From: Bdellovibrionales bacterium
GTDB lineage: Bacteria; Bdellovibrionota; Bdellovibrionia; Bdellovibrionales; UBA1609
Assembly: GCA_965247685.1 (NCBI GenBank)
Contig: OZ252021.1
Span: forward strand, 990,001-1,022,000
Length of the DNA stretch: 32,000 bases
Reading direction: 5' to 3'
The notes under the pieces were generated by a model that saw only the letters and a list, made by a program, of their open reading frames with translations, was not told where the DNA came from and searched no databases. The position numbers and the translations under genes were made by a program. This document shows, piece after piece, positions 9,059 through 26,295 of this stretch. The first letter of the stretch is position 1, and each line of letters opens with the position of its first letter.

Positions 9059-9387
9059 TAGTAATAGCCTAAACAATGATTAAGATCAGCTTGGCATAAG
9101 TATCTTGCATGATACGGATCCCAAGTAAAGATTGTTTGATTCAAACAAAGGTTGTATTGATTTCTACAAGAAATATATTGAAACTGTCCGTATATTGAAA
9201 AGTGAAAATTAATTTGAATTCCAGGATTAGCAAGGATGAAGGGACATGTGTTGATGGGATGATGGCAAAGTGATCCATTATGGTAGTGTCCGTGATATTG
9301 TCTGTATCTTTGATTTGAGTGCGCCCAAGAAAAAGATGTCACACTGAGAACTATAAAAACAAATAAAATAAATAATTTATTCAACAT
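9055..9387 (-). CDS. Small secreted His/Tyr-rich protein with six cysteines (set A, copy 1)
   Basis: Signal peptide MLNKLFILFVFIVLSVTSFSWA. A GAGGTG Shine-Dalgarno element lies ~8 nt upstream. Promoter, leader and signal peptide are duplicated at 9701..10095. The mature part has six Cys and many His/Tyr residues. Confidence 0.65.
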   Translation of the reverse strand: MLNKLFILFVFIVLSVTSFSWAHSNQRYRQYHGHYHNGSLCHHPINTCPFILANPGIQINFHFSIYGQFQYISCRNQYNLCLNQTIFTWDPYHARYLCQADLNHCLGYYY

Positions 9388-10792: not shown

Positions 10793-10911
10793 AAATATAC
10801 CTCCAAACCTTGTGAGAAGTTTATCTTCATCGTTCGGGAAGGGTATAAGTATGAGTATTGAATGTCAATTTTTATTTGTAAAGAAAAATTAGTTTTAGAC
10901 TTTTGCAATAT

Positions 10912-10946
10912 AAAATAAAAAAAATGGAGGCCTTTCGAGCTTCCTT
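10912..10946 (-). terminator. Rho-independent terminator after family B copy 2
   Basis: Plus strand reads aaaaaaaat-GGAGGC-ctttcga-GCTTCC-ttttt (stem 10926-10931 / 10939-10944). On the minus strand the hairpin is followed by a T-run. It lies 78 nt after the stop at 11023. Confidence 0.6.
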
Positions 10947-11022
10947 TTTATTACGAGAACTAGTTTTTAAGTGACTATTCTGCGACTTACTTCTTCAATA
11001 TAACATAGGTGAATGGTAACTA

Positions 11023-11604
11023 CTAGAAGCGGTAAGCTATTGGCAGAGCATTACACTCTTGGCTCAGATCGCTGAAATTTTTAGCTCTTGCGTTTCTTCT
11101 ATAAATACGCATCTCGACATAGTCAGCCTCGAAGGCAGCCTGTAACTTCCTTGCAATACAAGATCTAGATCTAGAGCCATCTGCATTTGCACGATATACA
11201 TGTGCAAAAGAGATAGAAGTCACAATATTAATAAAACCCCTATGATTGAAATTTCCTGCTCTAATCAAAAGACTTTCACTAGATACTTGTTCACTAGATT
11301 GCCTTTCTATCGGAGGACTATTCTCTGACTCAGGTACAGCAGCACGTGCACGTGGCCTTCTAGGGTCAGAGAACTGAGTACAGAGGACATTTTCTCCTTC
11401 TCTTTCTTTAATCTGAACTAAAATCTCACTTGAAGAAGAAGCAATATTGACATCATAGGTTTGGCCAAAAGGACTGAAATTATTAAAGATAAAATCAGCA
11501 CTTCCTTGATATGCACCGTCAAGCGCATTGCAACCTACTATTCTCGATGAATCGCTATATCCAAGAAGACAGAAAAAAATTGAGATTAATATAAGAATTT
11601 TCAT
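11023..11604 (-). CDS. Family B secreted protein, copy 2
   Basis: The start is set at the internal Met (MKILILISIFFCLLGYS) by alignment with paralogs and GGAGG 8 nt upstream; the tracked extension to 11679 runs into the promoter. Motifs: CNALDGAY, YDVNIASSSSEILVQIKE, C.QF, CIA, FSDLSQECNAL. Confidence 0.8.
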   Translation of the reverse strand: MKILILISIFFCLLGYSDSSRIVGCNALDGAYQGSADFIFNNFSPFGQTYDVNIASSSSEILVQIKEREGENVLCTQFSDPRRPRARAAVPESENSPPIERQSSEQVSSESLLIRAGNFNHRGFINIVTSISFAHVYRANADGSRSRSCIARKLQAAFEADYVEMRIYRRNARAKNFSDLSQECNALPIAYRF

Positions 11605-11650
11605 AAATATACCTCCAAACCCTGAGAAGATAATCTTCATCTCTTGGGTA

Positions 11651-11679
11651 AGGATAAAAGTATGAGTATTGAGTGTCAA
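11651..11679 (-). promoter_or_regulatory. Candidate sigma70-type promoter TTGACA-17-TATCCT for family B copy 2
   Basis: Minus strand: TTGACA (11674-11679), a 17-nt spacer, then TATCCT (11651-11656). The same architecture is repeated upstream of copies 1, 3 and 4; copies 1 and 3 have TACCCT as the -10. Confidence 0.4.
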
Positions 11680-11727
11680 TTCATAATCTGTAAAGAAAAA
11701 TTAGTTTTAGATCATTGTAATATAAAA

Positions 11728-11759
11728 TAATAAAAAGGGGAGGTCTTTCGAGCTTCCTT
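11728..11759 (-). terminator. Rho-independent terminator after family B copy 3
   Basis: A GGAGGT/AGCTTCC-type hairpin (about 11739-11757) is flanked by an A-run on the plus strand, which is a T-run after the hairpin on the minus strand. Confidence 0.55.
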
Positions 11760-11808
11760 TTTTATTGTAAGAACTAGTTTTTAAGTGATTATTTTGCGGC
11801 TTACTTTT

Positions 11809-12372
11809 TCAATCATTATGAACGCGGTAAGTTGCTGTAAGAGCGTTGCACTCCTGGCTCAGATCACTGAAGCTTTTAGTTCTTGGTCCGGTTCTACGAA
11901 GCTTCCACCACCATCTCGAACCATGAGATATACCGTCGAGGTAAAATAAACCCCTTGCAATACAAAATCTAAAGCCATCTTCATTTCTTACAAAATATTC
12001 AAGTTTGATAGAATCCAGTGTGTAGGGAAATAGCTTATCATTGTAATCTCCTGATTTACTCAAAATACTACTACTAAGTATCTCCATTTCTGAACGTCTA
12101 GGATCAAAGAACTGAGTACAGGAGATATTTCTATTTCTTTCGCTTCTTTCGTCTCCTTCGTCCATTCTTTCTTTAATCTGAACTAAAATCTCACTTGAAG
12201 AAGAAGCAATATTGACATCATAGGTTTGGTCAAAAAGACCAAAAGGATTCCACCTAGAGGCAAAATCAGCCGTCCCTTCGTATGCACCGTCAAACCTATT
12301 GCACAATATTTTCGGTACATCGCCATATCCAGGAAAACAGAAAAAAATTGAGATTAATATAAGAATTTTCAT
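11809..12372 (-). CDS. Family B secreted protein, copy 3
   Basis: Leader MKILILISIFFCFPGYG. Motifs: CNRFDGAY, YDVNIASSSSEILVQIKE, C.QF, CIA, FSDLSQECNAL. The 5' region is nearly identical to that of copy 1. Confidence 0.8.
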   Translation of the reverse strand: MKILILISIFFCFPGYGDVPKILCNRFDGAYEGTADFASRWNPFGLFDQTYDVNIASSSSEILVQIKERMDEGDERSERNRNISCTQFFDPRRSEMEILSSSILSKSGDYNDKLFPYTLDSIKLEYFVRNEDGFRFCIARGLFYLDGISHGSRWWWKLRRTGPRTKSFSDLSQECNALTATYRVHND

Positions 12373-12494
12373 AAATATACCTCCAAACCTTGTGAGAAGT
12401 TTATCTTCATCGTTCGGGAAGGATATAAGTATGAGTATTGAATGTCAATTTTTATTTGTAAAGAAAAATTAGTTTTAGACTTTTGCAATATAAA

Positions 12495-12529
12495 ATAAAA
12501 AAAAAGGGGAGGCCTTTCGAGTTTCCCTT
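12495..12529 (-). terminator. Rho-independent terminator after family B copy 4
   Basis: Hairpin GGGAGGC-ctttcga-GTTTCCC (about 12507-12527), with A9 on the plus strand upstream, which is a T-run after the hairpin on the minus strand. Confidence 0.55.
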
Positions 12530-12577
12530 TTTATTGTAAGAACTAGTTTTTAAGTGACTACTTTGCGGCTTACTTCT

Positions 12578-13102
12578 TCAATTATATGAATGGAAAGTTA
12601 CAGTAAGAGCATTGCACTCCTGGCTCAGATCACTGAAGCTTTTAGTTCTTGATTCAGTTTTACGAAGCTCCCACCATTCCGGATCCTCATACTCATTGTT
12701 GAGGTAAAATAAACCCCTTGCAATACAAATTCTCAAGCCATCTTCATCTCTGAAAAAATATTGAAATCTGATAGAATCCAGTCTATAGGGAAATAGTTTA
12801 TCATTGTAAAATCCTGATTTATTCAAAATACTATTACTAAGTATACTCATGTTTGAATGTATAGGATCAAAGAACTGAGTACAGGAGATATTTCTTCCGT
12901 CTCTTTCTTTAATCTGCACTAAAATGCTATCTGAAGAAGAAGCAATATTGACATCATAGGTTTGGTCAAAAAGACTCCAACTAGAGACAAAATCAGCCTT
13001 TCCTTTATATGCACCGTCAAGCTCATTGCAACCTACTATTCTCGATATATCGCTATATCCAGAAAAACAGAAAAAAATTAAAATTAATATAAGAATTTTC
13101 AT
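12578..13102 (-). CDS. Family B secreted protein, copy 4
   Basis: The start is set at the internal Met (MKILILILIFFCFSGYS; CAT at 13100-13102) by paralog alignment and the GGAGG spacing. Motifs as in copies 2 and 3. Confidence 0.8.
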   Translation of the reverse strand: MKILILILIFFCFSGYSDISRIVGCNELDGAYKGKADFVSSWSLFDQTYDVNIASSSDSILVQIKERDGRNISCTQFFDPIHSNMSILSNSILNKSGFYNDKLFPYRLDSIRFQYFFRDEDGLRICIARGLFYLNNEYEDPEWWELRKTESRTKSFSDLSQECNALTVTFHSYN

Positions 13103-13151
13103 AAATATACCTCTAAATCCTGTGAGAAGATAATCTTCATCTCTTGGGTTA

Positions 13152-13180
13152 AGGATAAAAGTATGAGTATTGAGTGTCAA
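13152..13180 (-). promoter_or_regulatory. Candidate sigma70-type promoter TTGACA-17-TATCCT for family B copy 4
   Basis: Minus strand: TTGACA (13175-13180), a 17-nt spacer, then TATCCT (13152-13157). Confidence 0.4.
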
Positions 13181-13227
13181 TTTTTATCTGTAAAGGAAAA
13201 TTAGTTTTAGATCTTTGTAATATAAAA

Positions 13228-13258
13228 TAAAAAAAAAGGAAGTCTTTCGAGCTTCCCT
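13228..13258 (-). terminator. Rho-independent terminator after family B copy 5
   Basis: Hairpin GGAAGT-ctttcga-GCTTCC (about 13238-13256), flanked by an A-run and a T-run. Confidence 0.55.
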
Positions 13259-13296
13259 TTTTTTTATGAGAATTAGTTTTTAAGTAACTATTCTGT

Positions 13297-13908
13297 CTAG
13301 CTACTTTTTTCCTGTACCTTCTTCTTCTGAACTACTTCTTGAAGAGTATTACACTCCCGTTTAAGAACACTAAAGCTTTTAGCCTTTTCCTTGGTGGTTT
13401 TTCTAGTAAGCTTAACACTTTGACTAGTTTCACCTTCTTTTTTCACGATTAACCTATCTGCAATACAAGATTTAGAGCCATCTTTTTTCTTTGCAAGATT
13501 TGCAACTTCTTTGAAAGAGATAGAAGACACACCATCAGCAAAGTCCTTATGATTGTCTTTTCCTGCTCTAATCATAATACTTTCACTAGATATACTCGCT
13601 TCTGTCGGACTTGTTCTTTCAACGTCAGAAAATTGAGCACAGAGGACATTTTCGCCTTCTATTTCTTTAATCTGAACCAAAACATCATTTGAAGAAGAAG
13701 CAATATTAACATCATAGTCTGAGTCTGGAAACCAAAGATCAAAATCCCAGACAATATCAACATCTGCTTCATATGGACCATTAAGATCGTTGCAGCCTAT
13801 TGTTTCCAATGCTCCACTGCTTTTTCCGCTTAAATCGCTGTCTTCGCCACAGTGAACAAGAAATAATGTCACAAACGCCACAGTAATAATTCTAACTAAG
13901 TTTTTCAT
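13297..13908 (-). CDS. Family B putative lipoprotein, copy 5 (second leader type)
   Basis: Leader MKNLVRIITVAFVTLFLVHCGEDSD. Motifs: CNDLNGPYEA, YDVNIASSSNDVLVQIKE, C.QF, CIA, FSVLKRECNTL. Confidence 0.8.
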   Translation of the reverse strand: MKNLVRIITVAFVTLFLVHCGEDSDLSGKSSGALETIGCNDLNGPYEADVDIVWDFDLWFPDSDYDVNIASSSNDVLVQIKEIEGENVLCAQFSDVERTSPTEASISSESIMIRAGKDNHKDFADGVSSISFKEVANLAKKKDGSKSCIADRLIVKKEGETSQSVKLTRKTTKEKAKSFSVLKRECNTLQEVVQKKKVQEKSS

Positions 13909-13941
13909 ATTTCCTCCAAATGATTTTTAGTTACTGATGTT

Positions 13942-13971
13942 AAAAAAAAGGGAGACCTGTCGAGCTTCCTT
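13942..13971 (-). terminator. Weaker hairpin terminator after family B copy 6
   Basis: GGAGAC-ctgtcga-GCTTCC (about 13951-13969) has one mismatch and one G-U pair. It has the same A-run and T-run flanks as the other copies. Confidence 0.4.
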
Positions 13972-14012
13972 TTTTGTTATGAGAATTAGTTTTTAAGTAA
14001 CTATTCTACTGT

Positions 14013-14633
14013 CTAGTTACTACTTTTTTTTTCTGTACCTTCTTCTTTCTTAACTACTACTTGAAGAGTATCACACTCTTGTTTAAGGACACTAAAGCTT
14101 TTAACATTTCCTTTGGGTTCTCTAAGAAGCTCAGCAGTTTCTTCCTTAATAGTCCCAACTTTTATCACCTTTGTCACGATTAACTTATCTGCGCGACAAG
14201 ATTTATTAGAGAAATCTTCAAGATTTGTAGCAATCTCTTTGAAAGAGATAGAAGATATACCATCAGCAAAGTCCTCATCATTGTCTTTTCCTATTTTATT
14301 CACAATATTTTTACTAGACATGCTCGCTTCTGTCGGACTTGATCTTTTAATGTCAGAAAATTGAGCACAGAGGACATCGCCTTCTTCGCCTTTAATCTGA
14401 ACTAAAACATCACTTAAAGAAGAAGCAATATTAACTTCATAGTTGCTATCATAAGGAATACCATTCCAGAAAATATCAATATCTACTGTTTTATATACAC
14501 CATCAAGATCGTTGCAGCCTATTGCTTCCACTGCTCCAATGCCGCTTGCCTCTACAACATCGCTGTCTTCACCACAGTGAACAAGAAATAATGTCACAAA
14601 CCCCACAGCAACAATTTTAACTAAGTTTTTCAT
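14013..14633 (-). CDS. Family B putative lipoprotein, copy 6 (second leader type)
   Basis: Leader MKNLVKIVAVGFVTLFLVHCGEDSD. Motifs: CNDLDGVY, YEVNIASSLSDVLVQIK, C.QF, C.A, FSVLKQECDTL. Confidence 0.8.
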   Translation of the reverse strand: MKNLVKIVAVGFVTLFLVHCGEDSDVVEASGIGAVEAIGCNDLDGVYKTVDIDIFWNGIPYDSNYEVNIASSLSDVLVQIKGEEGDVLCAQFSDIKRSSPTEASMSSKNIVNKIGKDNDEDFADGISSISFKEIATNLEDFSNKSCRADKLIVTKVIKVGTIKEETAELLREPKGNVKSFSVLKQECDTLQVVVKKEEGTEKKSSN

Positions 14634-14919: not shown

Positions 14920-15777
14920 CTATATACAAGGGTGTGTTTTTCGCCATTCGGAGAAGAAGGTCTCTGGATTAGGTGGATTTTCTTGTGTCTCAAGTTCACT
15001 GCTTTTGAATCGGATTGCCTCACTAGATTGTCGCAGTTCATTAGTCAAAAATACAGTCATACTTTCTAATGTTCCTGTATCTGCCGCCGTAATGACGCGA
15101 ATTTCTTTCATAATGGTATATGCATCTTCAATAGGGTCACCTTGCTCATCCATTTGTACTAAGGATTGGGCTTTGTAAGTCGTGTGCATACTACTGCTAC
15201 TTTGGTCGTTATAGCCTCTATCTATCATTTGTTGAGAGTCAACAATAGTAAAATCGCTCAATAGTATACAAAATCCTCCAGACACTTGAGGATCATTGGA
15301 GCGCATATGGAACATTAAAATATCGGATGTAGCGCTGTATGCGACAACAATCTTTGTAGCAAGATTAGTTTTCCAGAAATCTAGCCAGCCCCAGTAGACA
15401 TCCACATTTTTTTGGTACACTCCTGTAATCTGCTCAAGCTGTTTTGCAAATGTTGCAAATGATGGAGCAACAGACATATTGTCTTGAGGCTCTTTTGGTG
15501 GAGGTGTTTGTTGAGATGGTTGACGGATTTCTGTTGGCTGTTCAGTCTCTTTCTGCTGTTTTTGGAACGGAGCTTCATTAGAAGGAGCTTCATTAGAAGG
15601 AACTACATTAGAAGGAACTACATTAGAAGGAACTACATTATCATTAGAAGGAGCTTCAGATTCTGCAGGTTTTCCCGTCTTTATCTTTTGTTTTTGAGAC
15701 GGAGTCTCAAGTCCTGGATCCGATCCTGAGCAGGAGATATAAAACAAAACCAACACAAAAGAAATTACAAATTTCAT
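14920..15777 (-). CDS. Family C lipoprotein, most divergent copy (P/S/N pentapeptide-repeat linker)
   Basis: Leader MKFVISFVLVLFYISCSGS (hydrophobic core followed by Cys). VVPSN/EAPSN repeats. The conserved C-domain runs from PSFATFAKQLEQITGVY to RFKSSE...FFSEWRKTHPCI. Confidence 0.8.
   Translation of the reverse strand: MKFVISFVLVLFYISCSGSDPGLETPSQKQKIKTGKPAESEAPSNDNVVPSNVVPSNVVPSNEAPSNEAPFQKQQKETEQPTEIRQPSQQTPPPKEPQDNMSVAPSFATFAKQLEQITGVYQKNVDVYWGWLDFWKTNLATKIVVAYSATSDILMFHMRSNDPQVSGGFCILLSDFTIVDSQQMIDRGYNDQSSSSMHTTYKAQSLVQMDEQGDPIEDAYTIMKEIRVITAADTGTLESMTVFLTNELRQSSEAIRFKSSELETQENPPNPETFFSEWRKTHPCI
15571..15655 (-). repeat. 15-nt in-frame tandem repeat (about 5-6 units) encoding EAPSN/VVPSN
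   Basis: Plus strand shows cattagaaggagctt / cattagaaggaacta repeated head to tail. The translation is NDNVVPSNVVPSNVVPSNEAPSNEAP. Confidence 0.85.
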
Positions 15778-16011
15778 AGAATTTCTCCAAAATAAAAAGT
15801 TCTCGAAGTGTATTTTTAGGTCAGATTTTAACTTTTGTCAATAAAAAAGGGCGGTCTTCAGATCAGAATGGATGTTCAAAACACTAAAATCACTTAATAA
15901 AATAGCAAAACCGTTTCCATTTATATCATAATTTAACAGTTCTAAATATTCAATAAGAAATTCAGATTGATCGTCTACGGAGATTCGATCACCTCCGAGG
16001 TTCCTCTTCTG

Positions 16012-16947
16012 TTATATAAATCTACAAGGGGATTTATTCAGCTGTTCGGAGAAAAAGGCCTCTGGATCAGACGATATTTCCTCACTACTACGTTCACTGC
16101 TTTCGAATCGGAATGGGCTCAACACCTGGGTGAATCCACCAATCAGGCGGGAAGGAATCAGAAGACATATATACAAAATCTTCCAGGCTTGCTAGCATCC
16201 ATGGAGCGCATCCAGACCATTAAAGTATCAAAGTTAGGGCTGTATGCGAATAACAATCCTTACAGAAAGATCAGCTTTCCAAAAGTCATACGGGAACCAT
16301 TCCCAGTAGACATTCATTTTTTTGTGGTACACTCCTGTAATCTGCTCAAGCTGTTTTGCAAATGATGGAGAAGCAGACGTTGGAAGCTCTTGTTGTTCAG
16401 AGTTTTGTTGAAGTTCATTTTAACAAAAACCTGAATAAAATCGACAAAGTACAGATACTTCGTGTTCAAAATAGTGAGCTCTTTTTTCAAATTCTGCAAA
16501 TTCTTGTTCAAATTCTGCAAATTCTTGTAGAAATTGTTCAAATTCTTGTTCAAATTCTTGTTCACGTGTTTCAGATAGACTGTTTTCAGGTTTTTGTTTA
16601 AATTCTGCATATTCTTGTTTTAATTGTGCATAGTCTTGTAGAAATTCTGCATATTCTTGTTTTAATTGTGCATAGTCTTGTTCAAATTGTTCATATTGTT
16701 CAAAGTCATTTTGAGGTTGTTTAGATTCTTGTAGAAGTGTTCCAGGTAGAAGTGCTTCAGTTTCTTGTTGAGGTTGTTCAGAGTTTTGTTGAAATTGTTT
16801 CATTTGTTGTTCGGTTTTTTGTTGAATTTGTTCAGTTTCTTTTCGAAGTTGTTCAATTTGTTGTTGAGACGGAGTCTCAAGTCCTGGATCCGATCCTGAG
16901 CAGGAGATATAAAACAAAACCAACACAAAAGAAATTACAAATTTCAT
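16012..16947 (-). pseudogene. Family C lipoprotein pseudogene (nonsense codon, 1-nt insertion and ~257-nt internal deletion)
   Basis: The 5' part (ORF 16420..16947) has an intact leader identical to that of the 14920 copy. An in-frame TAA lies at 16420-16422. Downstream, the same frame continues with NELQQNSEQQELPTSASPSFAKQLEQITGVYHKK.., then there is an extra A near 16250 relative to paralogs. The domain core is missing between about 16175 and its flank. The canonical end ..SPCRFI-stop is at 16012. Confidence 0.75.
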
Positions 16948-17179
16948 AGAATTTCTCCAAAATAAAAAGTTCTCGAAGTGTATTTTAGGTCAGATTTTAA
17001 CTTTTGTCAATAAAAAAGGGCGGTCTTCAGATCAGAATGGATGTTCAAAACACTAAAATCACCTAATAAAATAGCAAAATCGTTTCCATTTATTTCATAT
17101 TTAACAGTTCTAAATATTCAATGAGAAATTCAGATTGATCGTCTACGGAGATTCGATCACCTCCGAGGTTCCTCTTCTG

Positions 17180-18385
17180 TTATATAAATCTACAAGGGGA
17201 TTTATTCAGCTGTTCGGAGAAGAAGGCCTCTGGATCAGATGGTATTTCCTCACTACGTTCACTGCTTTTGAATCGGAATGGCTCAACACCTGAGTGAATC
17301 CAATCAGGCGGGGCGCTGAAGTAAGCAGACATATATAAAGTCATGCTTTCTAATTCTCCTGTATCTGTGACGAAAAGAGAAATGAATCTCGTCGTATTTT
17401 CTACATCTCCCACCTGGTCCAGACCCTCTCTTAATCCTTGAATGTAGCCATGTTCATTATTCATCTGAAGTTCCTTCACCCACTCTTTTTTTAAGGATCG
17501 GGCTTCGTAAATCGTGTGGGTACTCTCGTTGCGACCTTCATCGTCTATATAGTCTGGCTCAAAGTCAGCAATATTAAAATCGCTCAATAGTACACAAAAT
17601 CTTCCAGGCTCGCTAGCATCCATGGAGCGTATCCAGAACATTAAAGTATCGGACATAGGGCTGTATGCGAGAACAGTCTTTGTAGAAAGATCAGCTATCC
17701 AAGAGTCATACGGGAACCATGACCAGTAGACATCCACTTTTTTGTGGTACACTCCTGTAATCTGCTCAAGCTGTTTTGCAAATGATGGAGGAGCAGGAGA
17801 AGCAGACGTTGGAAGCTTTTGTTGTTTGGTTTGTTGTTGAGGCGGAGTCTCAGTTTCTTTTTGAATTTCTTCAATGTCTTCTTTAGTTTCTTGTTTAATT
17901 TCTTCAATTTGTTGTTCAGATTTTTGTTTAATTTCTTTAATTTGTTGTCCAGATTTTTGTTTAATTTCTTTAATTTGTTGTGGAGGCGGAGTCTCAGTTT
18001 CTTTTTGAATTTCTTCAATGTCTTTTTTAGTTTCTTTTTGAATTTCTTCAATGTCTTCTTTAGTTTCTTGTTTAATTTCTTCAATTTGTTGTTCAGATTT
18101 TTGTTTAATTTCTTTAATTTGTTGTCCAGATTTTTGTTTAATTTCTTTAATTTGTTGTGGAGGCGGAGTCTCAGTTTCTTTTTGAATTTCTTCAATGTCT
18201 TTTTTAGTTTCTTTTTGAATTTCTTCAATGTCTTCTGTAGTTTCTTGTTTAATTTGTTGAATTTGTTGTTCAGATTTTTGTTGAATTTGTTTAATCTGTT
18301 GTTGAGGTGGAGTCTCAAGTCCTGCATTCGATCCTGAGCAGGAGACATAAAAGAAAACCAACACAAAAGAAAATACAAATTTCAT
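17180..18385 (-). CDS. Family C lipoprotein, longest copy (401 aa)
   Basis: Leader MKFVFSFVLVFFYVSCSGS, a long QQIKEIKQKS/EDIEEIQKET repeat stalk, and a conserved C-domain ending FFSEQLNKSPCRFI. GGAGAA lies ~6 nt before the ATG. Confidence 0.85.
   Translation of the reverse strand: MKFVFSFVLVFFYVSCSGSNAGLETPPQQQIKQIQQKSEQQIQQIKQETTEDIEEIQKETKKDIEEIQKETETPPPQQIKEIKQKSGQQIKEIKQKSEQQIEEIKQETKEDIEEIQKETKKDIEEIQKETETPPPQQIKEIKQKSGQQIKEIKQKSEQQIEEIKQETKEDIEEIQKETETPPQQQTKQQKLPTSASPAPPSFAKQLEQITGVYHKKVDVYWSWFPYDSWIADLSTKTVLAYSPMSDTLMFWIRSMDASEPGRFCVLLSDFNIADFEPDYIDDEGRNESTHTIYEARSLKKEWVKELQMNNEHGYIQGLREGLDQVGDVENTTRFISLFVTDTGELESMTLYMSAYFSAPPDWIHSGVEPFRFKSSERSEEIPSDPEAFFSEQLNKSPCRFI
17805..18313 (-). 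repeat. Nested in-frame tandem repeats (177-nt units built from 33-nt and shorter sub-repeats)
   Basis: tggaggcggagtctcagtttc occurs at 17981 and again at 18158, a period of 177 nt (59 codons). A shorter third unit starts near 17836. Confidence 0.9.
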
Positions 18386-18582
18386 AGAATTTCTCCAAAA
18401 AAAAAGGTTCTCAAAGTATATTTTCGGGTCAGATTTTAACTTTTGTCAATAAAAAAGAGAGTCCGTCAGATCAAAATGGGTATTCAAAACACTAAAATCA
18501 CTTAATAAAATAGCAAAACCGTTTCCATTTATATCATAATTTAACAGTTCTAAATATTCAATAAGAAATTCAGATTGATCAC

Positions 18583-19680
18583 CTACTGAGATTTGATCGT
18601 CTGAGATACGTTGTTGATGATCGTCGTCCACTTCTTAACTGTGATCTTCACCAGAGGTTTATCTATAAATCTACAAGGGGATTTATTCAGCTGTTCGGAG
18701 AAGAAGGCCTCTGGATCAGATGGTATTTCCTCACTACGTTCACTGCTTTTGAATCGGAATGGCTCAACACCTGGGTGAATCCACCAATCAGGCGGGAAGG
18801 AATCAGAAGACATATATACAGTCATGCTTTCTAATTTTCCTGTATCTGTGACGAAAAGAGAAATGAATCTCGTCGTACTCTCTACATCTCCCACCCTGTA
18901 CAGATTCTCTTTTAATCCTTGCCTGTAGTCATCGGTACTATTATGCTGATGCTCCTCCTTCCACTCGTTTTTTAAGGATTTGGCTTCGTAAACCGTGAGG
19001 GTACTCCCGCTGCGACCTTCATAGTCTATATAGTCTGGCTCAAAGCCAGCAATATTAAAATCGCTCAATAGTACACAAAATCTTCCAGGCTCGCTAGCAT
19101 CCATGGAGCGCATCCAGACCATTAAAGTATCAAAGTTAGGGCTGTATGCGAGAACAATCTTTGTAGAAAGATCAGCTATCCAAGAGTCATACGGGTACCA
19201 AAGCCAGGTGACATCTTTTTTTTTGTGGTACACTCCTGTAATCTGCTCAAGCTGTTTCGCAAATGATGGAGGAGCAGACGTTGGAAGCTTTTGTTGTTTG
19301 ATTTGTTGTGGAGGCGGAGTCTCAGCTTCTTTTTGAATTTCTTCAATGTCTTCTGTAGTTTCTTGTTTAATTTGTTGAATTTGTTGTTCAGATTTTTGTT
19401 TAATTTCTTTAATTTGTTGTTCAGATTTTTGTTTAATTTCTTTAATTTGTTGTGGAGGCGGAGTCTCAGTTTCTTTTTGAATTTCTTCAATGTCTTTTTT
19501 AGTTTCTTTTTGAATTTCTTCAATGTCTTCTGTAGTTTCTTGTTTAATTTGTTGAATTTGTTGTTCAGATTTTTGTTGAATTTGTTTAATCTGTTGTTGA
19601 GGTGGAGTCTCAAGTCCTGCATTCGATCCTGAGCAGGAGACATAAAAGAAAACCAACACAAAAGAAAATACAAATTTCAT
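18583..19680 (-). CDS. Family C lipoprotein with C-terminal read-through extension
   Basis: The first 86 aa are identical to the 17180..18385 copy in the ORF track. The canonical ..SPCRFI end is followed by DKPLVKITVKKWTTIINNVSQTIKSQ instead of a stop. Confidence 0.8.
   Translation of the reverse strand: MKFVFSFVLVFFYVSCSGSNAGLETPPQQQIKQIQQKSEQQIQQIKQETTEDIEEIQKETKKDIEEIQKETETPPPQQIKEIKQKSEQQIKEIKQKSEQQIQQIKQETTEDIEEIQKEAETPPPQQIKQQKLPTSAPPSFAKQLEQITGVYHKKKDVTWLWYPYDSWIADLSTKIVLAYSPNFDTLMVWMRSMDASEPGRFCVLLSDFNIAGFEPDYIDYEGRSGSTLTVYEAKSLKNEWKEEHQHNSTDDYRQGLKENLYRVGDVESTTRFISLFVTDTGKLESMTVYMSSDSFPPDWWIHPGVEPFRFKSSERSEEIPSDPEAFFSEQLNKSPCRFIDKPLVKITVKKWTTIINNVSQTIKSQ
19285..19608 (-). repeat. 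Q/E/K/I-rich in-frame tandem repeats (stalk region)
   Basis: Uses the same sub-repeat vocabulary as 17805..18313 (QQIKEIKQKSEQQI, EDIEEIQKE, ETPPPQQ) but with fewer units. Confidence 0.85.
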
Positions 19681-19890
19681 AGAATTTCTCCAAAAAAAAG
19701 GTTCTCAAAGTATATTTTCGGGTCAGATTTTAACTTTTGTCAATAAAAAAGAGAGTCCGTCAGATCAAAATGGGTATTCAAAACACTAAAATCACTTAAT
19801 AAAATAGCAAAACCGTTTCCATTTATATCATAATTTAACAGTTCTAAATATTCAATGAGAAATTCAAATTGATCACCTACTGAGATTTGA

Positions 19891-20895
19891 TCACCAGAGA
19901 GATTTATCTATAAATCTACAAGGGGATTTATTCAGCTGTTCGGAGAAGAAGGCCTCTGGATCAGATGGTATTTCCTCACTACTACGTTCACTGCTTTTGA
20001 ATCGGATTGGCTCTACACCTGAATGAAACCAAGCAGGCTTGAAGATCGTCCTGAACATCATATAAGGAAACATATATACAGTCATGCTTTCTAATTCTCC
20101 TGTATCTGTGACGAAAAGAGAAATGAATCTCGTCGTACTATCTGCATCTCCCACCTGGTTCAGATCCTCTTTTAATCCTTGCCTGTAGTCATCGATACTA
20201 TTATGCTGAAGCTCCTCCTTCCACTCGCTTTTTAAGTATTTGGCTTCGTAAACCGTGAGGGTACTCCCGTTGTGACCTTCATCGTCTGTATAGTCTGGCT
20301 CAAAGCCAGCAATACTAAAATTGCTCAATAGTGTACAAAATCTTCCAGGATCGTCAGCATCCATGGAGCGTATCCAGAACATTAAAGTATCAGAGTTAGG
20401 GCTGTATGCGAGAACAATCTTTGTAGAAAGATCAGCTTTCCAAAAGTCATAAGGGTACCATAACCAGTAGACATCCACTTTTTTGTGGTACACTCCTGTA
20501 ATCTGCTCAAGCTGTTTTGCAAATGATGGAGGAGCAGGAGAAGCAGACGTTGGAAGCTCTTGCGGTTTGGTTTGTTGTTGAGACGGAGTCTTAGTTTCTT
20601 TTTGAACTTGTTCAATTTGTCGTATAGTTTCTTTTTGAATTTTTTCAATTTCTACTTTATTTTCTTGTTTAATTTGTTCAATTTCTTCTTTAGTTTCTTG
20701 TTCGGTTTGTTGTCCAGATTCTTGTTGAAGTTGTTCAATTTGTTGTTCGGTTTTTTGTTGAATTTCTTTAATTTGTTGTCCAGATTTTTGTTGAATTTCT
20801 TTAATTTGTTGTTGAGGTGGAGTCTCAAGTCCTGCATCCAATCCTGAGCAGGAGACATTAAACAAAACCAACACAAAAGAAAATAAAAATTTCAT
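19891..20895 (-). CDS. Family C lipoprotein
   Basis: Leader MKFLFSFVLVLFNVSCSG, a less regular Q/E/K/I stalk, a conserved C-domain, and the end ..SPCRFIDKSLW. Confidence 0.85.
   Translation of the reverse strand: MKFLFSFVLVLFNVSCSGLDAGLETPPQQQIKEIQQKSGQQIKEIQQKTEQQIEQLQQESGQQTEQETKEEIEQIKQENKVEIEKIQKETIRQIEQVQKETKTPSQQQTKPQELPTSASPAPPSFAKQLEQITGVYHKKVDVYWLWYPYDFWKADLSTKIVLAYSPNSDTLMFWIRSMDADDPGRFCTLLSNFSIAGFEPDYTDDEGHNGSTLTVYEAKYLKSEWKEELQHNSIDDYRQGLKEDLNQVGDADSTTRFISLFVTDTGELESMTVYMFPYMMFRTIFKPAWFHSGVEPIRFKSSERSSEEIPSDPEAFFSEQLNKSPCRFIDKSLW
20545..20823 (-). repeat. Imperfect Q/E/K/I-rich low-complexity repeats (stalk region)
   Basis: The translation QQIKEIQQKSGQQIKEIQQKTEQQIEQLQQESGQQTEQETKEEIEQIKQENKVEIEKIQKETIRQIEQVQKET is degenerate relative to the other copies. 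Confidence 0.7.
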
Positions 20896-21127
20896 AGAAT
20901 TTCTCCAAAATAAAAAGTTCTCGAAATGTATTTTTAGGTCAGATTTTAACTTTTGTCAATATAAAGAGAGTCCGTCAGATCAAAATGGGTATTCAAAACA
21001 CTAAAAGCATTTAATAAAATAACAAAACCGTTTCCATTTATTTCATACTTAACAGTTCTAAATATTCAATAAGAAATTCAGATTGATTGTCTGCTGAGAT
21101 TCGATCACCTCCGAGGTTCCTCTTCTG

Positions 21128-22165
21128 TTATATAAATCTACAAGGGGATTTATTCAGCTGTTCGGAGAAGAAGACCTCTGAATCAGATGGTATTTCCTCA
21201 CTACGTTCACTGCTTTTGAATCGGATTGGCTCAACACCTGGGTGAACCCAATCCTGCCGGAAGGTAGAGGAAGAAGACATATATAAAGTCATGCTTTCTA
21301 ATTTTCCTGTATCTGTGACGAAAAGAGAAATGAATCTCGTTATACTCTCTACATCTCCCACCCTGTGTAGTTTATCTTTTACTCCTTGATTGTAGTCATC
21401 GAGATTATTATTCTGAAGCTCCTTCACCCACTCTTTTTTTAAGGATCGGGCTTCGTAAATCGTGTGGGTACTCTCGTTGCGACCTTCATCGTCTATATAG
21501 TCTGGATAGTCTAGCTCAAAGCCAGCAATAATATTAAAATCGCTCAATAGTACACAAAATCTTCCAGGCTTGCCAACATCCATGGAGCGCATCCAGACCA
21601 TTAAAGTATCGGACATAGAGCTGTATGCGATAACAATCCTTACAGGAAGATCAGCTTTCCAAAAGTCATACGGGTACCAATTCCAGTAGACATCCACTGT
21701 TTTGTGGTACACTCCTGTAATCTGCTCAAGCTGTTTCGCAAATGATGGAGGAGCAGACGTTGGAAGCTTTTGTTGTTTGATTTGTTGTGGAGGCGGAGTC
21801 TCAGCTTCTTTTTGAATTTCTTCAATGTCTTCTGTAGTTTCTTGTTTAATTTGTTGAATTTGTTGTTCAGATTTTTGTTTAATTTCTTTAATTTGTTGTC
21901 CAGATTTTTGTTGAATTTGTTTGATTTGTTGTGGAGGCGGAGTCTCAGTTTCTTTTTGAATTTCTTCAATGTCTTCTGTAGTTTCTTGTTTAATTTGTTG
22001 AATTTGTTGTTCGGTTTTTTGTTTAATTTGTTTAATTTGTTGTCCAGATTTTTGTTTAATTTCTTTAATTTGTTTTTGTTGTTGAGATGGAGTCTCAAGT
22101 TCTGCATCCAATCCTGAGCAGGAGACATAAAACAAAATCAACACAAAAGAAAATAAAAATTTCAT
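21128..22165 (-). CDS. Family C lipoprotein (first copy in transcription order)
   Basis: Leader MKFLFSFVLILFYVSCSG, a repeat stalk, and a conserved C-domain ending ..SPCRFI. Confidence 0.85.
   Translation of the reverse strand: MKFLFSFVLILFYVSCSGLDAELETPSQQQKQIKEIKQKSGQQIKQIKQKTEQQIQQIKQETTEDIEEIQKETETPPPQQIKQIQQKSGQQIKEIKQKSEQQIQQIKQETTEDIEEIQKEAETPPPQQIKQQKLPTSAPPSFAKQLEQITGVYHKTVDVYWNWYPYDFWKADLPVRIVIAYSSMSDTLMVWMRSMDVGKPGRFCVLLSDFNIIAGFELDYPDYIDDEGRNESTHTIYEARSLKKEWVKELQNNNLDDYNQGVKDKLHRVGDVESITRFISLFVTDTGKLESMTLYMSSSSTFRQDWVHPGVEPIRFKSSERSEEIPSDSEVFFSEQLNKSPCRFI
21750..22093 (-). repeat. Q/E/K/I-rich in-frame tandem repeats (stalk region)
   Basis: QQIK[EQ]IKQK[ST][EG]QQI..IKQETTEDIEEIQKE[TA]ETPPPQQ appears twice in the translation. 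Confidence 0.85.
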
Positions 22166-22416
22166 AGAATTTCTCCAAAAAAAAGGCTCTCAAAGTATAT
22201 TTGAGGGTCAGATTTTAACTTTTGTCAATAAAAAGAGAGTCCGTCAGATCAAAATGGGTGTTCAAAATACTAAAATCACTTAATAAAATAGCAAAACCGT
22301 TGTCATTTATTTCATATTTAACATTCTTTGTGTGAATGTAAGAACAAGAAGAAAACTGACAAGTAACTTCTGAAGAAACTCTAATAAGGCTTCGTACCTT
22401 AATGTAGGATAATGAC

Positions 22417-24933
22417 TCATTCTGAGTTTAAAAGTTTTTGAGCTGGAATAAGAAGAGAAGCTTTAGTTGCTCTTTGAATAATAAATAATGTGGCAAATAA
22501 AGAGACAAGCATAAGGATAAAAGGAGTGATGGAAATTTTCCATTGAGCATCAAATATAAAAACAGAAATAACAAAAGAGACGACAAGAGAGCTGAGTAAG
22601 CCTAAAAGAGATGAAGCGAAAGCTATCAACCCGAATTGAGAGAGGAAAAGCATTTGAATATCCTTAAAAGAAGCCCCTAGAGTTTTGAAAAGCCCAATAT
22701 CCCATACACGGGTTCTCATTTGATGTGACACTATAGAATAAAGAACAGCTAGGGCTGCGAGTAGACAAAGCAGAGTCATCATTTGTAAAGCAAGGCTCAT
22801 TTGTTGAGTCAGATTCATAATCTGTCTAGTTAGTCGAGAAATATCAATAGACGAAATATTTGGAAAAAGTTCAGTTAAAGAACTCTGTATTTGATATTTT
22901 TTTTCAGGAGCAAGCTGTTTCAAGCTCGCCAAAAATGTTTTAGGTAAAGATTCTAGTGAATTAGGTTGGAATAATATGAAAAAATTAGGTTGAAAAGAGA
23001 GCCAATTGACTTGGCGGATATTTTGAACAACTCCTTCAATAGTTCTATTTTGCGATTCAAAGATCAGGCGATCATTCATTTTAAGCCCAACACGTTTGGC
23101 AAATCTTTGCTCTAAAGAAATAGCAGGAAGTTCACCGGGAAGTGTAGCTTGATTCCATATTTTTCCATCTATGATTTTTTCTGAAGGGCTGAGTTTTTCT
23201 TGATAGCTAAGATTAAAAATACGATTTCTAAATTGCATTTCACGAGATTTCTCACGGCTCCACTCTGTTTGTCCTGTCCCTTTATCAAAAGTTTTTCCAT
23301 TAATGGATGTGAGACGAGATTGAATCATAGGAATCATTTTATCTACGTCTACATTATTTTGTTTAAGATGATTTTTAAGAGGCTCGACTTGATGGTCTTG
23401 AATGTCAAATAGAAACAAAGAAGGAAGAGAAGATTTTTCAGGAGGATTAATTTCTCGATTCAAAGTTTGCTCTATTTGCGGTACAATATTTAAAAGCAAA
23501 ACTCCTAAACTTAAAGAGACAAAACAGGAAAGAGAACTAAGAGGGCGTCGGACGAGATCACGAAGAGACCATTTTAGAATAGGGTTTAAGCGGAACCGTT
23601 GAACAATAAGATGAGATAGGTAGAGTAAAACTCCTCCAATCAGCGTCAATAACAATGCTAAACCTAAGAAGCTGGCAAGAAAAATACTTCCGACTTTAAA
23701 AGAATGAGATTGCCACACTGAGAGCCCCCACAAAACAAGAATACCCAAGGAGTATAAAACCCATGTCAGAACGTCCTTTTGAAAAGGAGTTTGTTGGTGA
23801 AGAAGTGATGAGATTTTTATTTTTCGAATTTGTGCGAGTATAGGTAAGACGACCCATAAAGGGGTGATTAGCACAATAAAACTGGTCAAAGAGAAAGTAT
23901 AAAGACTCCAGTGAATTTCAAAAGGTAAAAATGAAGAGGTCACTTGTTTTAGAAATGGTAAAATAATGAGCGCTAAACCTAAAGAAGTGATGAAGCTTAT
24001 AATACTCAGAGTCACCACTTGGGTGAGGTAAAGAAGAAAAACTTGCATTCTTTTGAGTCCGAGAGAGAGAAGAATAGCAATATGATTAATTTTAGATTTA
24101 AAATAGGATCGAAATAAAAAGATTAAACCAATACAAGTCAGAAACAGAGTGCATAAAGAAGCTAGAGATAAAAAATCGTTCAAATAAGTCATCAGTCGAG
24201 TTACAGTTTCACTATTGTTTTCGTGAGTTTTGACTCGAATGGTCGGATCGTCGAATTGATTGAAAATATTTTTTTGTATTTGATTGAGTTGAAAACTATT
24301 TTGATTGTCTATTTTGTAAAAATAGGAGTAATAGGCAAGGCTTCCTCTTCCAATAAGTTTCGTGTTCTGTATATGACGATAGGAAATATAGGCAATGGGA
24401 GCTAGGTCGCTAGTTAAGGAATGGGAAGTATCTTTTTCGACCACACCTGTGACTTGAAAGGTGGACTGGCCGATATTCACATCATCTCCTATTTGCAGTT
24501 GAAGGTGAGTCATTATCTCTGGATAAAGCCATACCGTTTTTTTCGAAGAAGGTTTGTGGCTTTTAATTTTTATTTTTCCATAAAATGGAAAATTTGATTG
24601 TATGGCTTTGAGATGAGTCAGATGTGTTTTTTTTGTTCGAGTATTAGAGATCATAGAAAAGGTTGAGATGATTTGAGATTCTTTGGAGTTTTTTGGAATA
24701 TTTTTTAAAATAAGATTCTTTTCTTTTAGGTTTAAGGGTCTTCTGGCAGAGATGGACAGATCCGCCCCCATCATTTCTTTAGATTGAGATTTTACGATCT
24801 GATCAATGGAGTTTTTGAAGATGTCGAGAGTGATAAAGCCTGTCAGCCCTAAGGACGCATTCAATACAAAAAGTAAAACAAAGAGTGGGTGATTTTTGAG
24901 TTCTTTAAAGACTAATTTGAATATCAAACGCAT
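22417..24933 (-). CDS. ybbP: ABC transporter permease with two FtsX-like domains (YbbP-like)
   Basis: 838 aa. Two clusters of TM helices are separated by large soluble loops, the layout of the YbbP/FtsX-type fused permease. The start lies 1 nt after the stop of the ATPase gene. Confidence 0.8.
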   Translation of the reverse strand: MRLIFKLVFKELKNHPLFVLLFVLNASLGLTGFITLDIFKNSIDQIVKSQSKEMMGADLSISARRPLNLKEKNLILKNIPKNSKESQIISTFSMISNTRTKKTHLTHLKAIQSNFPFYGKIKIKSHKPSSKKTVWLYPEIMTHLQLQIGDDVNIGQSTFQVTGVVEKDTSHSLTSDLAPIAYISYRHIQNTKLIGRGSLAYYSYFYKIDNQNSFQLNQIQKNIFNQFDDPTIRVKTHENNSETVTRLMTYLNDFLSLASLCTLFLTCIGLIFLFRSYFKSKINHIAILLSLGLKRMQVFLLYLTQVVTLSIISFITSLGLALIILPFLKQVTSSFLPFEIHWSLYTFSLTSFIVLITPLWVVLPILAQIRKIKISSLLHQQTPFQKDVLTWVLYSLGILVLWGLSVWQSHSFKVGSIFLASFLGLALLLTLIGGVLLYLSHLIVQRFRLNPILKWSLRDLVRRPLSSLSCFVSLSLGVLLLNIVPQIEQTLNREINPPEKSSLPSLFLFDIQDHQVEPLKNHLKQNNVDVDKMIPMIQSRLTSINGKTFDKGTGQTEWSREKSREMQFRNRIFNLSYQEKLSPSEKIIDGKIWNQATLPGELPAISLEQRFAKRVGLKMNDRLIFESQNRTIEGVVQNIRQVNWLSFQPNFFILFQPNSLESLPKTFLASLKQLAPEKKYQIQSSLTELFPNISSIDISRLTRQIMNLTQQMSLALQMMTLLCLLAALAVLYSIVSHQMRTRVWDIGLFKTLGASFKDIQMLFLSQFGLIAFASSLLGLLSSLVVSFVISVFIFDAQWKISITPFILMLVSLFATLFIIQRATKASLLIPAQKLLNSE

Positions 24934-24934
24934 A

Positions 24935-25600
24935 CTAAGAAGTACCTTGAAGAGTCCCTTTTATCAGTTTCATTTGAATACGGCATCGCTGAGCTAATTC
25001 TGGATTATGAGTGACCAGTATTAATATAGTTGGAGATTCTTTGACCAAAGAAAAAAGAAGATTCATGGCCTGTTCTCCCGAATTTGCGTCTAGGTTGCCG
25101 CTGGGTTCATCTGCTAAGAGAACATGAGGTTTGATCACACTCGCTCGGGCTATGGCTGTTCGCTGACATTCTCCTCCACTCATTTGTCGAGGAAGATGAT
25201 TCAATCGATGGGATAAACCTACATAATCCAACTGTTTTTTTGCTTTTTGAGTGGCATTTTTATCTCTTGCAATCTCTAGCGGCAACATCACATTTTCTAG
25301 TGCTGTCAGATGAGGCATCAGATAGTATTGCTGAAAAATAATTCCTATATGTTTTGCTCGAAATTGAACCAATTCGGATTCGCTCATTTGTTGAAGGTTA
25401 TGGCCGTGAATTATGATGTTTCCGTGATCAGGCTGCTCTAAACCTGCAAGCAGAGAAAGAAGTGTTGTTTTACCACTGCCTGAAGGCCCTATAATAGAAA
25501 GTGTTTGAGAGGAGGAAGTTTCAAAATGAATTCCCTTGAGAACCTGAATTTTTTGGGAGGCTTGGAGAAAAGATTTTTCTAAATTTTGAACTTTAATCAT
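24935..25600 (-). CDS. ybbA: ABC transporter ATP-binding protein (YbbA/LolD-like)
   Basis: Walker A GPSGSGKTT, signature MSGGECQR, Walker B LLADEPSGNLD, H-loop VTHN. The 3' region resembles E. coli YbbA as I remember it. Confidence 0.88.
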   Translation of the reverse strand: MIKVQNLEKSFLQASQKIQVLKGIHFETSSSQTLSIIGPSGSGKTTLLSLLAGLEQPDHGNIIIHGHNLQQMSESELVQFRAKHIGIIFQQYYLMPHLTALENVMLPLEIARDKNATQKAKKQLDYVGLSHRLNHLPRQMSGGECQRTAIARASVIKPHVLLADEPSGNLDANSGEQAMNLLFSLVKESPTILILVTHNPELAQRCRIQMKLIKGTLQGTS

Positions 25601-26295
25601 GGGTAAAAACTTTTAAAGTAAGGGTAAAGGGTATTTGTTATAATACGATGTCCTTTTTCGTTAGGGTGTATACCGTCAGGGAGATTATATTCAGGAATAG
25701 TTGCGACACCTTCCAACAGAAAAGGAACATAGGCTATTTTATGTTTTTGGGCAAGATTTGTAAATACTTTTTCAAAAGGAATTCGATAATCGTCTCCATA
25801 GTTTAAAGGAAGTTTAAGTCCTACCAGAATAATTTTAATATTATTAGTTTTTGCAAGTTGAATAGTCTCCTCTAGGTTTTTTTGTATAGTGTCTATAGAG
25901 GTTCCTCTCATCCCATCATTAGATCCAAGAGCAATAAGTACAATATTCGGTTTAAAGGAAAGGTAAGTTTTTAGTCTGCTGAGGGCGGAGCTGGTTGTAG
26001 AACCGTTAATACCTGCATTTATCACTTGGGTTTGATATTGAGGAAATTCTTTATTGAGTTTTTGTTCCAAAAGATGGGGGAAGGTATCTTCTTTATTTAG
26101 GTTGTAGCCGGCAGTAAGAGAGTCTCCTAGTGCAATAAAGATAAATTTTTCTTTTTGTGGAGTTTTATCTTTTATATCTTCGATTGGCTCTGGTTTTTGC
26201 TTTGTGGTGGTGGGTCGGGAAGAAAAAAACATAAAAGAAACTCCTAAAGAGAGTATTACTGTTGATCCTACTATTATTAAATTTTTAGGAGACAT
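25597..26295 (-). CDS. tesA: SGNH/GDSL hydrolase, TesA-like (acyl-CoA thioesterase I / lysophospholipase L1 family)
   Basis: SGNH blocks are present: IALGDSLTAGY, NAGINGSTT, ALGSNDG, DGIHPN. It has an N-terminal signal/anchor. The stop overlaps the ybbA-like start by 4 nt. Confidence 0.85.
   Translation of the reverse strand: MSPKNLIIVGSTVILSLGVSFMFFSSRPTTTKQKPEPIEDIKDKTPQKEKFIFIALGDSLTAGYNLNKEDTFPHLLEQKLNKEFPQYQTQVINAGINGSTTSSALSRLKTYLSFKPNIVLIALGSNDGMRGTSIDTIQKNLEETIQLAKTNNIKIILVGLKLPLNYGDDYRIPFEKVFTNLAQKHKIAYVPFLLEGVATIPEYNLPDGIHPNEKGHRIITNTLYPYFKSFYP

Follow-up and report, generated by a model that had tools for sequence, protein, structure and literature searches.

How does an envelope gene that relatives carry once come to stand in six diverged copies, and what might such a repertoire do? 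The locus that raises this question lies in a 32,000-nt stretch of contig OZ252021.1, here called the window. On its minus strand, at positions 14920-22416, a head-to-tail array holds six units, five of them intact open reading frames (ORFs) and one a pseudogene. We label the units A to F in order of increasing coordinate, and we refer to the three parts of their products, from the N-terminus, as the "leader", which carries a conserved cysteine, the "stalk", which is repetitive, and the "head", which is the C-terminal domain. The array appears best explained, with a probability that we put at roughly 55%, as a lineage-specific tandem expansion in which a very fast-evolving gene for an envelope lipoprotein, restricted to one clade, went from one copy to six.

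Copy number and structure of the array

The initial annotation had proposed seven units with six intact ORFs. Three independent counts agree instead on six units, five intact and one decayed, and each of them rules out a seventh: a 23-nt promoter core occurs in 6 perfect copies against a chance expectation of 0, the leader gives six signal-peptide matches, and the head gives six C-domain matches, one of which is fragmented. The start-to-start spacing reported at the outset (1170-1438 nt) agrees with the measured unit distances of 1170, 1438, 1295, 1215 and 1270 nt, and all of the minus-strand ORF sizes given there were recovered by ORF calling (A, 285; C, 401; D, 365; E, 334; F, 345 aa). Intact ORFs of 285-401 codons at 35% G+C are far longer than chance would produce. 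The stalks also contain extra ORFs, in the remaining frames and on the plus strand (e.g. 17695-18378 and 17819-18337); judging from the ORF list, these stay open for want of stop codons in the repeats.

All six units read on the minus strand. Copy F (21128..22165), an intact gene of 345 aa, has the leader, a stalk of two 48-aa modules and the head. Copies E (19891..20895, 334 aa) and D (18583..19680, 365 aa) are also intact; both have lost the stop codon that followed CRFI, which lengthens E by 5 aa and D by 26 aa drawn from the spacer. Copy C (17180..18385, 401 aa) is intact and has the longest stalk, made of three proline-bounded modules of 11-aa repeats. Copy A (14920..15777, 285 aa), likewise intact, has a stalk of VVPSN/EAPSN pentapeptides and adjoins a second array, of small putative lipoproteins. 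Copy B (16012..16947), with a stalk of 21-nt repeats, is the pseudogene: its frame meets an in-frame stop after codon 175, and the remnant of its head consists of three frame-shifted pieces, the middle of the domain, and with it most of the head, having been deleted. The loss of the ancestral stop codon can be read directly at 18583-18663 in D and 19891-19908 in E, where ATATAA has become ATAGATAAA and translation would run on into the spacer for 26 and 5 codons, respectively.

Repeat-rich loci invite the suspicion that copy number is inflated or chimeric, and the stretches of near identity seen here (278 nt shared by C and D, 200 nt by D and F), together with internal repeats, are of the kind that misleads assemblers. 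Head sequences nevertheless diverge by about 10-12% from unit to unit, stalks and spacers are distinct, the units are regularly bounded and none is incomplete, and the length of the source contig, 1.28 Mb, suggests a long-read assembly. We regard an assembly artefact as extremely improbable.

Distribution and gene order in related genomes

The family was sought with an exhaustive hidden Markov model (HMM) search over 1.84 billion cluster representatives, which stand for ~15 billion proteins. Six clusters were found: two belong to the window and the other four are the proteins P0007-P0010 (E values 3e-22 to 7e-12). Two word-indexed searches found no further family members, and none was found when the GTDB species genomes were scanned with the family profile or in a scan of Joint Genome Institute (JGI) metagenomes. 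The family is confined to five contigs, those of the window and of four relatives, and all five intact window proteins are singletons on a single contig of 1,280,446 bp. P0007-P0010 are 240-264 aa long and have a leader with a Cys, a linker rich in acidic residues, Pro and Thr, and a head that ends in P/S-C-x.

The four related loci (L001-L004) carry one head-family member each, whereas the window carries six units, and this comparison of synteny bears out the duplication proposed in the initial annotation. In coding-strand order the window reads GDSL hydrolase, ABC ATPase, 838-aa FtsX permease and copies F, E, D, C, B and A, followed by six small putative lipoproteins, a 110-aa Cys/His-rich secreted protein and a convergent purB. 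L001 and L004 have the same gene order with a single head gene, and L002 and L003 have rimP-nusA where the window has the ABC cluster. In all four relatives the head gene occupies the same slot and is followed by the small-lipoprotein array and purB. Flanking housekeeping proteins of the relatives are 75-88% identical to those of the window, whereas the head orthologues are only 27-36% and the small lipoproteins 30-34% identical. Among the representatives of other Bdellovibrionota whose loci around purB were compared, neither the head family nor the small-lipoprotein family is present there.

The best purB matches among GTDB species genomes are metagenome-assembled genomes of Bdellovibrionales and Pseudobdellovibrionaceae, at 48-56%. 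In a neighbour-joining tree of purB, the single gene on which the placement rests, the five genomes form a clade nested in a 29-member group whose remaining members are almost entirely Bdellovibrionota records. The source organism appears to be an uncultured, low-G+C bacterium related to Bdellovibrionales, within the two-membrane Bdellovibrionota. What is new here is an unnamed protein family, possibly with a new variant of a beta fold, found on five contigs among ~15 billion predicted proteins.

Leader, head and stalk

The Sec-type leader MKF[VL][FI]SFVL..F[YN][VI]SCSG is common to all window copies and places a Cys at residue 16. In 6/6 window copies and 4/4 orthologues, Met-Lys is followed by 12-13 uncharged hydrophobic residues, inside the 7-22 expected of a lipoprotein signal core, and a Cys at residue 16-17 is conserved in all ten sequences. 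Two lipobox positions of the window copies fit, with Ser at -1 and Val/Ile at -2, and position -3 does not. Among the orthologues, P0008, P0009 and P0010 (3/4) pass the PS00013 pattern, and P0008 and P0009 also pass G+LPPv2. Lipidation of the leader Cys is probable.

The head comprises the C-terminal 170-200 aa. It does align across the copies, as had been judged by eye, C-F being 78-81% identical to one another and about 50% identical to A. It was not recognized at first as any named family, and this held: searched singly or as a profile, it has no match in Pfam, NCBIfam, PADLOC or PDB sequences, and no significant one by Foldseek. Seventeen head positions are invariant across nine sequences from five genomes (the five intact copies and the four orthologues), among them Cys69 and Cys183, one of which lies at the start of strand 4 and the other beside the C-terminus. 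The two are likely to form a disulfide, which would mean that the head folds outside the cytoplasm.

An AlphaFold2 model of the copy A head, built on the nine-sequence alignment, has a predicted local distance difference test (pLDDT) score of 81.4 and a predicted template-modelling (pTM) score of 0.79. A helix stands at each end of the model, and between the two run eight long antiparallel strands of 8-19 residues. The copy C model is weaker (pLDDT 68.8) and falls below pLDDT 50 in two stretches, residues 101-131 and 157-168, which largely match two insertions that are present in B-F and missing from A and the orthologues. Foldseek searches of the two models against PDB returned nothing at E <0.01 or at a template-modelling (TM) score >0.38, and a search of one model against viral structures returned nothing at E <0.01. 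The weak matches are mostly lipocalins (L-PGDS, beta-lactoglobulin, C8-gamma, nitrophorin), GID4, LolA, LolA3, LprG and MucB; those to PDB lipocalins have E 0.03-0.5 and TM 0.25-0.38, and those to LolA3, LolA and LprG, all non-significant, E 0.1-0.5 and TM 0.22-0.31.

These matches suggest a lipocalin-like or calycin-like topology in the models, membership not being established. Like the lipocalins and the LolA/LprG-type lipoproteins (Blc, LprG), the family has a putative lipid-anchor signal and a predicted order of helix, eight up-and-down strands and helix. As in lipocalins, a Gly-x-aromatic motif stands at the start of strand 1, and the disulfide typical of lipocalins joins Cys residues placed as in the head, in strand 4 and near the C-terminus. 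The motif differs in that its aromatic residue is Tyr or Phe rather than Trp, so that G-[VY]-[YF] replaces the lipocalin G-x-W signature; moreover, the strands are unusually long (11-19 residues) and the long repetitive stalk has no counterpart among lipocalins, LolA or LprG. No Pfam lipocalin model matched any of the nine members at an E of 1 or better, and for a LolA/LprG/LppX-like assignment there was no Pfam or NCBIfam profile match and no significant structural match. An outer-membrane beta-barrel of the PagP/OmpX type, suggested by the topology of a helix plus eight long strands, was considered and set aside: none is among the Foldseek matches, the C-terminus is a helix with a Cys and no terminal aromatic signal, and the leader is of the lipoprotein type.

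The stalk is a low-complexity spacer built of in-frame tandem repeats, and its length differs between copies, as noted at the outset. All repeat periods are multiples of 3. In copy C (17852..18302) a 33-nt base unit is organized into a 177-nt higher-order unit present 2.5 times with a 97% match; in D (19297-19612) and F (21773-22074) the 33-nt unit forms a 144-nt higher-order unit, repeated 2.2 and 2.1 times, respectively, so that both have about 2 copies with an 87-95% match. Copy E (20591-20812) has the 33-nt unit, copy B (16486-16697) a 21-nt unit repeated 9.8 times, and copy A (15576-15640) a 15-nt unit repeated 4.3 times that encodes VVPSN; all read on the minus strand. In C-F the unit corresponds to 11 residues of the form xxIxxIxxxxx (QQIKEIKQKSE, EDIEEIQKETK), with Ile at positions 3 and 6, and the units are gathered into modules bounded by ETPPP. 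Their hydrophobicity has a period of 3.69 residues, or 11/3, and by this pattern the C-F stalk looks like a straight amphipathic helix or an 11-residue-repeat coiled coil. If helical, stalks of 102-179 residues would reach a length of some 15-25 nm.

The only Pfam and PADLOC matches to the family fall in the stalk, to helical-repeat and coiled-coil proteins, all well below threshold and compositional in nature. The apolipoprotein A1/A4/E repeats (PF01442), for example, match the stalk alone at E = 8e-8 and 32.6 bits, far below the 90-bit cut-off. They share with it an 11-residue periodicity and proline-punctuated helical modules; they differ in that the window stalk has only two hydrophobic residues per 11-mer, in a narrow stripe. 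The resemblance is in composition and periodicity, not homology.

Diversification of the copies

Copy A is the most orthologue-like of the six (28-43% identity to the orthologues). We take it to represent the ancestral type because it adjoins the small-lipoprotein array, is without the two head insertions and is the most similar to the orthologues. Copies B-F are, by their sequences, a derived subfamily, distinguished by the two insertions and, in C-F, by the 11-residue stalk. The locus thus offers a natural example of the passage from a single-copy envelope gene to a diversified repertoire, with the stages visible within 7.5 kb: a copy of ancestral type, five derived copies (one decayed), loop insertions, a new stalk type and conversion tracts.

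Evidence for exchange between copies comes from the distribution of shared sites. Among C, D, E and F, site patterns in the promoter plus leader support only the grouping CD|EF, and in the head a run of 12 consecutive CF|DE sites gives way to CE|DF sites. Exact shared runs of 278 nt (C-D), 200 nt (D-F) and 123 nt (A-B) occur in units that are otherwise about 89% identical, and the first 86 residues of C and D are identical, exactly as had been reported for this pair. Mosaic site patterns, exact runs and the C-D identity are together the signature of gene conversion or unequal crossing-over; the gene conversion suggested initially is supported by the incongruent blocks and by the runs of 200-278 nt.

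Substitutions in the head are mostly amino-acid changing. The pairwise ratio of nonsynonymous to synonymous substitution rates (dN/dS) is 1.4-2.25 among C-F and 1.1-1.3 against A. Nonsynonymous sites make up 101 of the 116 variable head nucleotide sites among C-F (87%), whereas neutrality would give 71-79%, depending on the mutation bias assumed (binomial P 0.016 to 5e-5).

Ratios near or above 1 can also be produced by relaxed constraint, and a neutral birth-and-death process, in which copies of a dispensable orphan gene drift without any diversified function, would account as well for the pseudogene already present among the six copies and for the missing original stop codons of D and E. We consider it very unlikely. 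Five ORFs of 285-401 codons are still open at 35% G+C, the 17 head positions have stayed invariant (both Cys among them), conservation of the promoter cores and ribosome-binding sites is perfect, nonsynonymous differences are more frequent than neutrality predicts, and both the gene and its position have been kept in five genomes whose housekeeping proteins are 12-25% diverged.

Spacers and expression signals

Six spacers of ~200-250 nt each, within 15778..22416 on the minus strand, separate the units or precede the array (22166-22416, 20896-21127, 19681-19890, 18386-18582, 16948-17179 and 15778-16011), and their sequences are conserved, as the initial annotation had stated for the intergenic DNA. 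A 23-nt core, TTGACAAAAGTTAAAATCTGACC, which contains the -35 hexamer, is identical in all six. It lies at 22206-22228, 20937-20959 and 19721-19743 in the first three spacers, on the F, E and D side, and at 18427-18449, 16988-17010 and 15819-15841 in the remaining three, again on the minus strand. A -10-like xAAAAT follows at 17-18 nt from the hexamer, and GGAG stands just ahead of the ATG. Because core, xAAAAT and GGAG are present in every spacer, each unit, the pseudogene included, is seen to have its own sigma-70-like promoter-type signals and ribosome-binding site. No intrinsic terminators were found between units on the coding strand, and Rfam detected no RNA family within the array, its only matches being two tRNAs elsewhere in the window.

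The combination of highly conserved promoters and leaders with variable mature regions built of in-frame tandem repeats, and the exchange of segments between copies, recall antigenic or phase variation of the Mycoplasma Vlp/Vsa type. One or a few copies would then be expressed at once, and switching together with changes in repeat length would evade a host, phage or predator. We judge this quite unlikely. The six promoter cores are identical and none has a homopolymer or short-repeat tract in its -35/-10 spacer, no inverted repeats able to flank an invertible element were found, and there is no recombinase gene within the window; T8-T9 runs do occur, in the leader region on the downstream side of the promoter. 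The idea of a device for promoter inversion or phase variation was set aside, as neither inverted repeats nor a promoter-spacer tract was found.

The array resembles Vlp, Vsa and Vsp in other respects. Those systems, too, are clusters of lipoprotein paralogues with near-identical promoters and leaders and with exchange between copies; their mature regions consist of in-frame tandem repeats that change in length, and they occupy a sizeable locus in a small, low-G+C genome. They differ in having no sequence homology to the window family (with a cut-off of 325.5, the NCBIfam model for LppA reaches 18.8 bits, over leader and stalk only), in the window array's want of a promoter homopolymer or invertase switch, in the conserved part of the window family being a folded head of 170-200 aa, and in the window organism's apparent place in the two-membrane Bdellovibrionota. 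As a type of system, a multicopy, recombining and fast-evolving lipoprotein array already has well-known analogues.

As a separate observation, the spacers can also be read as ...EFLIEYLELLNYDINGNGFAILLSDFSVLN..., which is similar to the head motif GRFCVLLSDFNI and may be the relic of a gene fragment. Examples of this reading lie at 18449-18634, 15841-16011, 19743-19907 and 22218-22427, and its frame is broken in 3/6 spacers. The idea that the reading NGNGFAILLSDFSVL is a relic of the head motif was set aside, the matches being individually weak (E values of 0.06-1.2 per spacer) and the spacers not mutually independent.

Cellular location and possible function

If the array is a lineage-specific expansion of an envelope lipoprotein gene, its products could work as follows. 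Lipidation of the leader Cys would anchor the protein in a membrane, and the repeat stalk, variable in length, would hold a disulfide-braced beta head ~15-25 nm away from it. The copies diversify by gain and loss of stalk repeats, by exchange of segments and by an excess of amino-acid-changing substitutions in the head, probably under positive selection. The head would be a binding module with a varying target, such as a prey or host surface or some other external ligand, and duplication followed by diversification would broaden or shift binding specificity. By analogy with multicopy variable lipoproteins and with stalk-and-tip adhesins, surface exposure would be the most likely location, and the head may bind a variable external target.

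Two groups of proteins inform this analogy. Neisseria fHbp and TbpB and the surface lipoproteins of Borrelia combine a lipidated Cys, a flexible low-complexity tether and beta-rich binding domains with rapid variation driven by selection. The window family would resemble them in this plan; there is no detectable similarity in sequence or structure, and no export partner (Slam or the like) was identified. The MAT proteins of Bdellovibrio form trimeric fibres with variable C-terminal tips, a multigene repertoire that has been proposed to recognize diverse prey surfaces (PMC10769870). They belong to the same phylum and, like the window family, are a multigene repertoire of elongated stalk-plus-tip proteins. 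Unlike it, they are not lipoproteins and form no tandem array, and no homology was found. The variable part also differs, being the tip in MAT proteins, whereas here the stalk varies most and the head keeps one conserved fold.

Several points weigh against the proposed explanation. The leaders of the window copies, first described as lipobox-like, keep the shared sequence and Cys16, but have Tyr or Asn at -3 and fail both PS00013 and G+LPPv2; these copies may instead be cleaved by signal peptidase I. Both the membrane and the side of it on which the proteins would lie are reasoned from analogy, and the term "binding module" derives from topology alone, because no structural neighbour has a TM above 0.38. 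Only 15 synonymous sites underlie the dN/dS estimates, the codon background at 31 sites of the selection test was ambiguous, and gene conversion violates the assumptions of that test. Enrichment of variable sites in predicted loops was slight and not significant (42% vs 28%, P = 0.13). Some relaxation of constraint must be real because one copy is a pseudogene.

The main rival explanation, unlikely in our estimation, is a carrier function: the lipoproteins would face the periplasm, carry hydrophobic ligands as LolA, LprG or lipocalins do, and work with the adjacent ABC system. Most lipoproteins of two-membrane bacteria face the periplasm by default, and lipocalins, LolA, LolA3, LprG and MucB dominate the weak Foldseek matches. 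The genes for the GDSL hydrolase, the ABC ATPase and the 838-aa FtsX-type permease (22417..26295, minus strand) make up a type VII ABC cluster that resembles TesA-YbbA-YbbP. It lies immediately upstream of the array, on the same strand, in 3/5 genomes (the window, L001 and L004), and in E. coli YbbAP-TesA pulls hydrophobic compounds out of the inner membrane (PMC12646458). In L002 and L003, however, the head gene stands beside rimP-nusA with no ABC cluster nearby, and in the window every unit has its own promoter. The structural matches all have an E of 0.03 or worse and a TM of 0.38 or less, and orthologue identities of 27-36% amid flanks of 75-88%, with dN/dS above 1, would be unusual for a housekeeping carrier. 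Should the proteins face the periplasm, the significance of the array would be more modest.

The tandem-expansion explanation can be carried a step further. The head could be an undescribed binding fold, and the six-copy and small-lipoprotein arrays, which may share their ancestry, could together make up the surface recognition repertoire of an uncultured lineage related to Bdellovibrionales. An arms race against the envelopes of prey or hosts would have shaped it through duplication and gene conversion, through the insertion of loops and through stalks of changing length; we offer this as a tentative and rather doubtful extension. If the heads do bind prey or host surfaces, the array would open a way to study how an uncultured branch of the predatory Bdellovibrionota recognizes its targets, and would supply a natural set of variants for mapping specificity.

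The small-lipoprotein array and other neighbours

The second array (10127..14633, minus strand) contains six putative lipoproteins, ~190-220 aa long and sharing four conserved Cys; a fragment lies at 9704-10000. In all relatives the corresponding slot adjoins the head gene, with 3-7 copies in the four related contigs, and the small-lipoprotein family is as lineage-restricted as the head family. Several of the genes have their own promoter-like sites of the form TTGACA-N17-TATCCT.

The small lipoproteins and the first half of the head have motifs in common, in the same order: G-x-Y...D..W, I-A-S/Y-S, D-x-L-V/M, C-x-x-F-x-D and a Cys near the C-terminus. Profile-profile alignment of the two families with hhalign gave E = 1.3e-4 and a probability of 53% over 63 columns, a score attained by 1/200 column-shuffled controls. 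The best non-family match of the head HMM within the window is a small lipoprotein (E = 0.027). Common ancestry of the small lipoproteins and the first half of the head is plausible on this comparison of profiles and motifs; if it is true, the whole 12-kb island, 10127-22165, would represent one superfamily.

Most leaders of the small family end in L-[TVI]-H-C, which puts His at lipobox position -1 in place of the canonical Gly/Ala/Ser. The motif recurs in four genomes, at 14574-14633, 13849-13908 and 10733-10792 in the window and in leaders of L002-L004. An isolated member, P0016 (239 aa), is encoded at 10001-10720 of L085, near ligA, gatCAB and secA, on a contig from the same sample as L004. 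The small family is not strictly bound to the island, because P0016 sits at an unrelated locus.

Elsewhere in the window, ORFs at 995-2557 (plus strand, 520 aa), 26650-28083 (minus strand, 477 aa) and 28173-28937 (minus strand, 254 aa) have no Pfam or NCBIfam match. The 520-aa ORF adjoins a di-haem cytochrome c peroxidase gene; such a peroxidase gene also has a neighbour of ~500 aa with no Pfam match in L002 and L003, which is likened to the 520-aa ORF by position only.

At the purB side the island ends, in 5/5 genomes, with the 110-aa Cys/His-rich secreted protein (9055..9387, minus strand). It has the pattern HGHYHNG...C..P..TCP...C...C...C...C..YYY and, at 43-58% identity across the five genomes, is more conserved than the adjoining lipoproteins.

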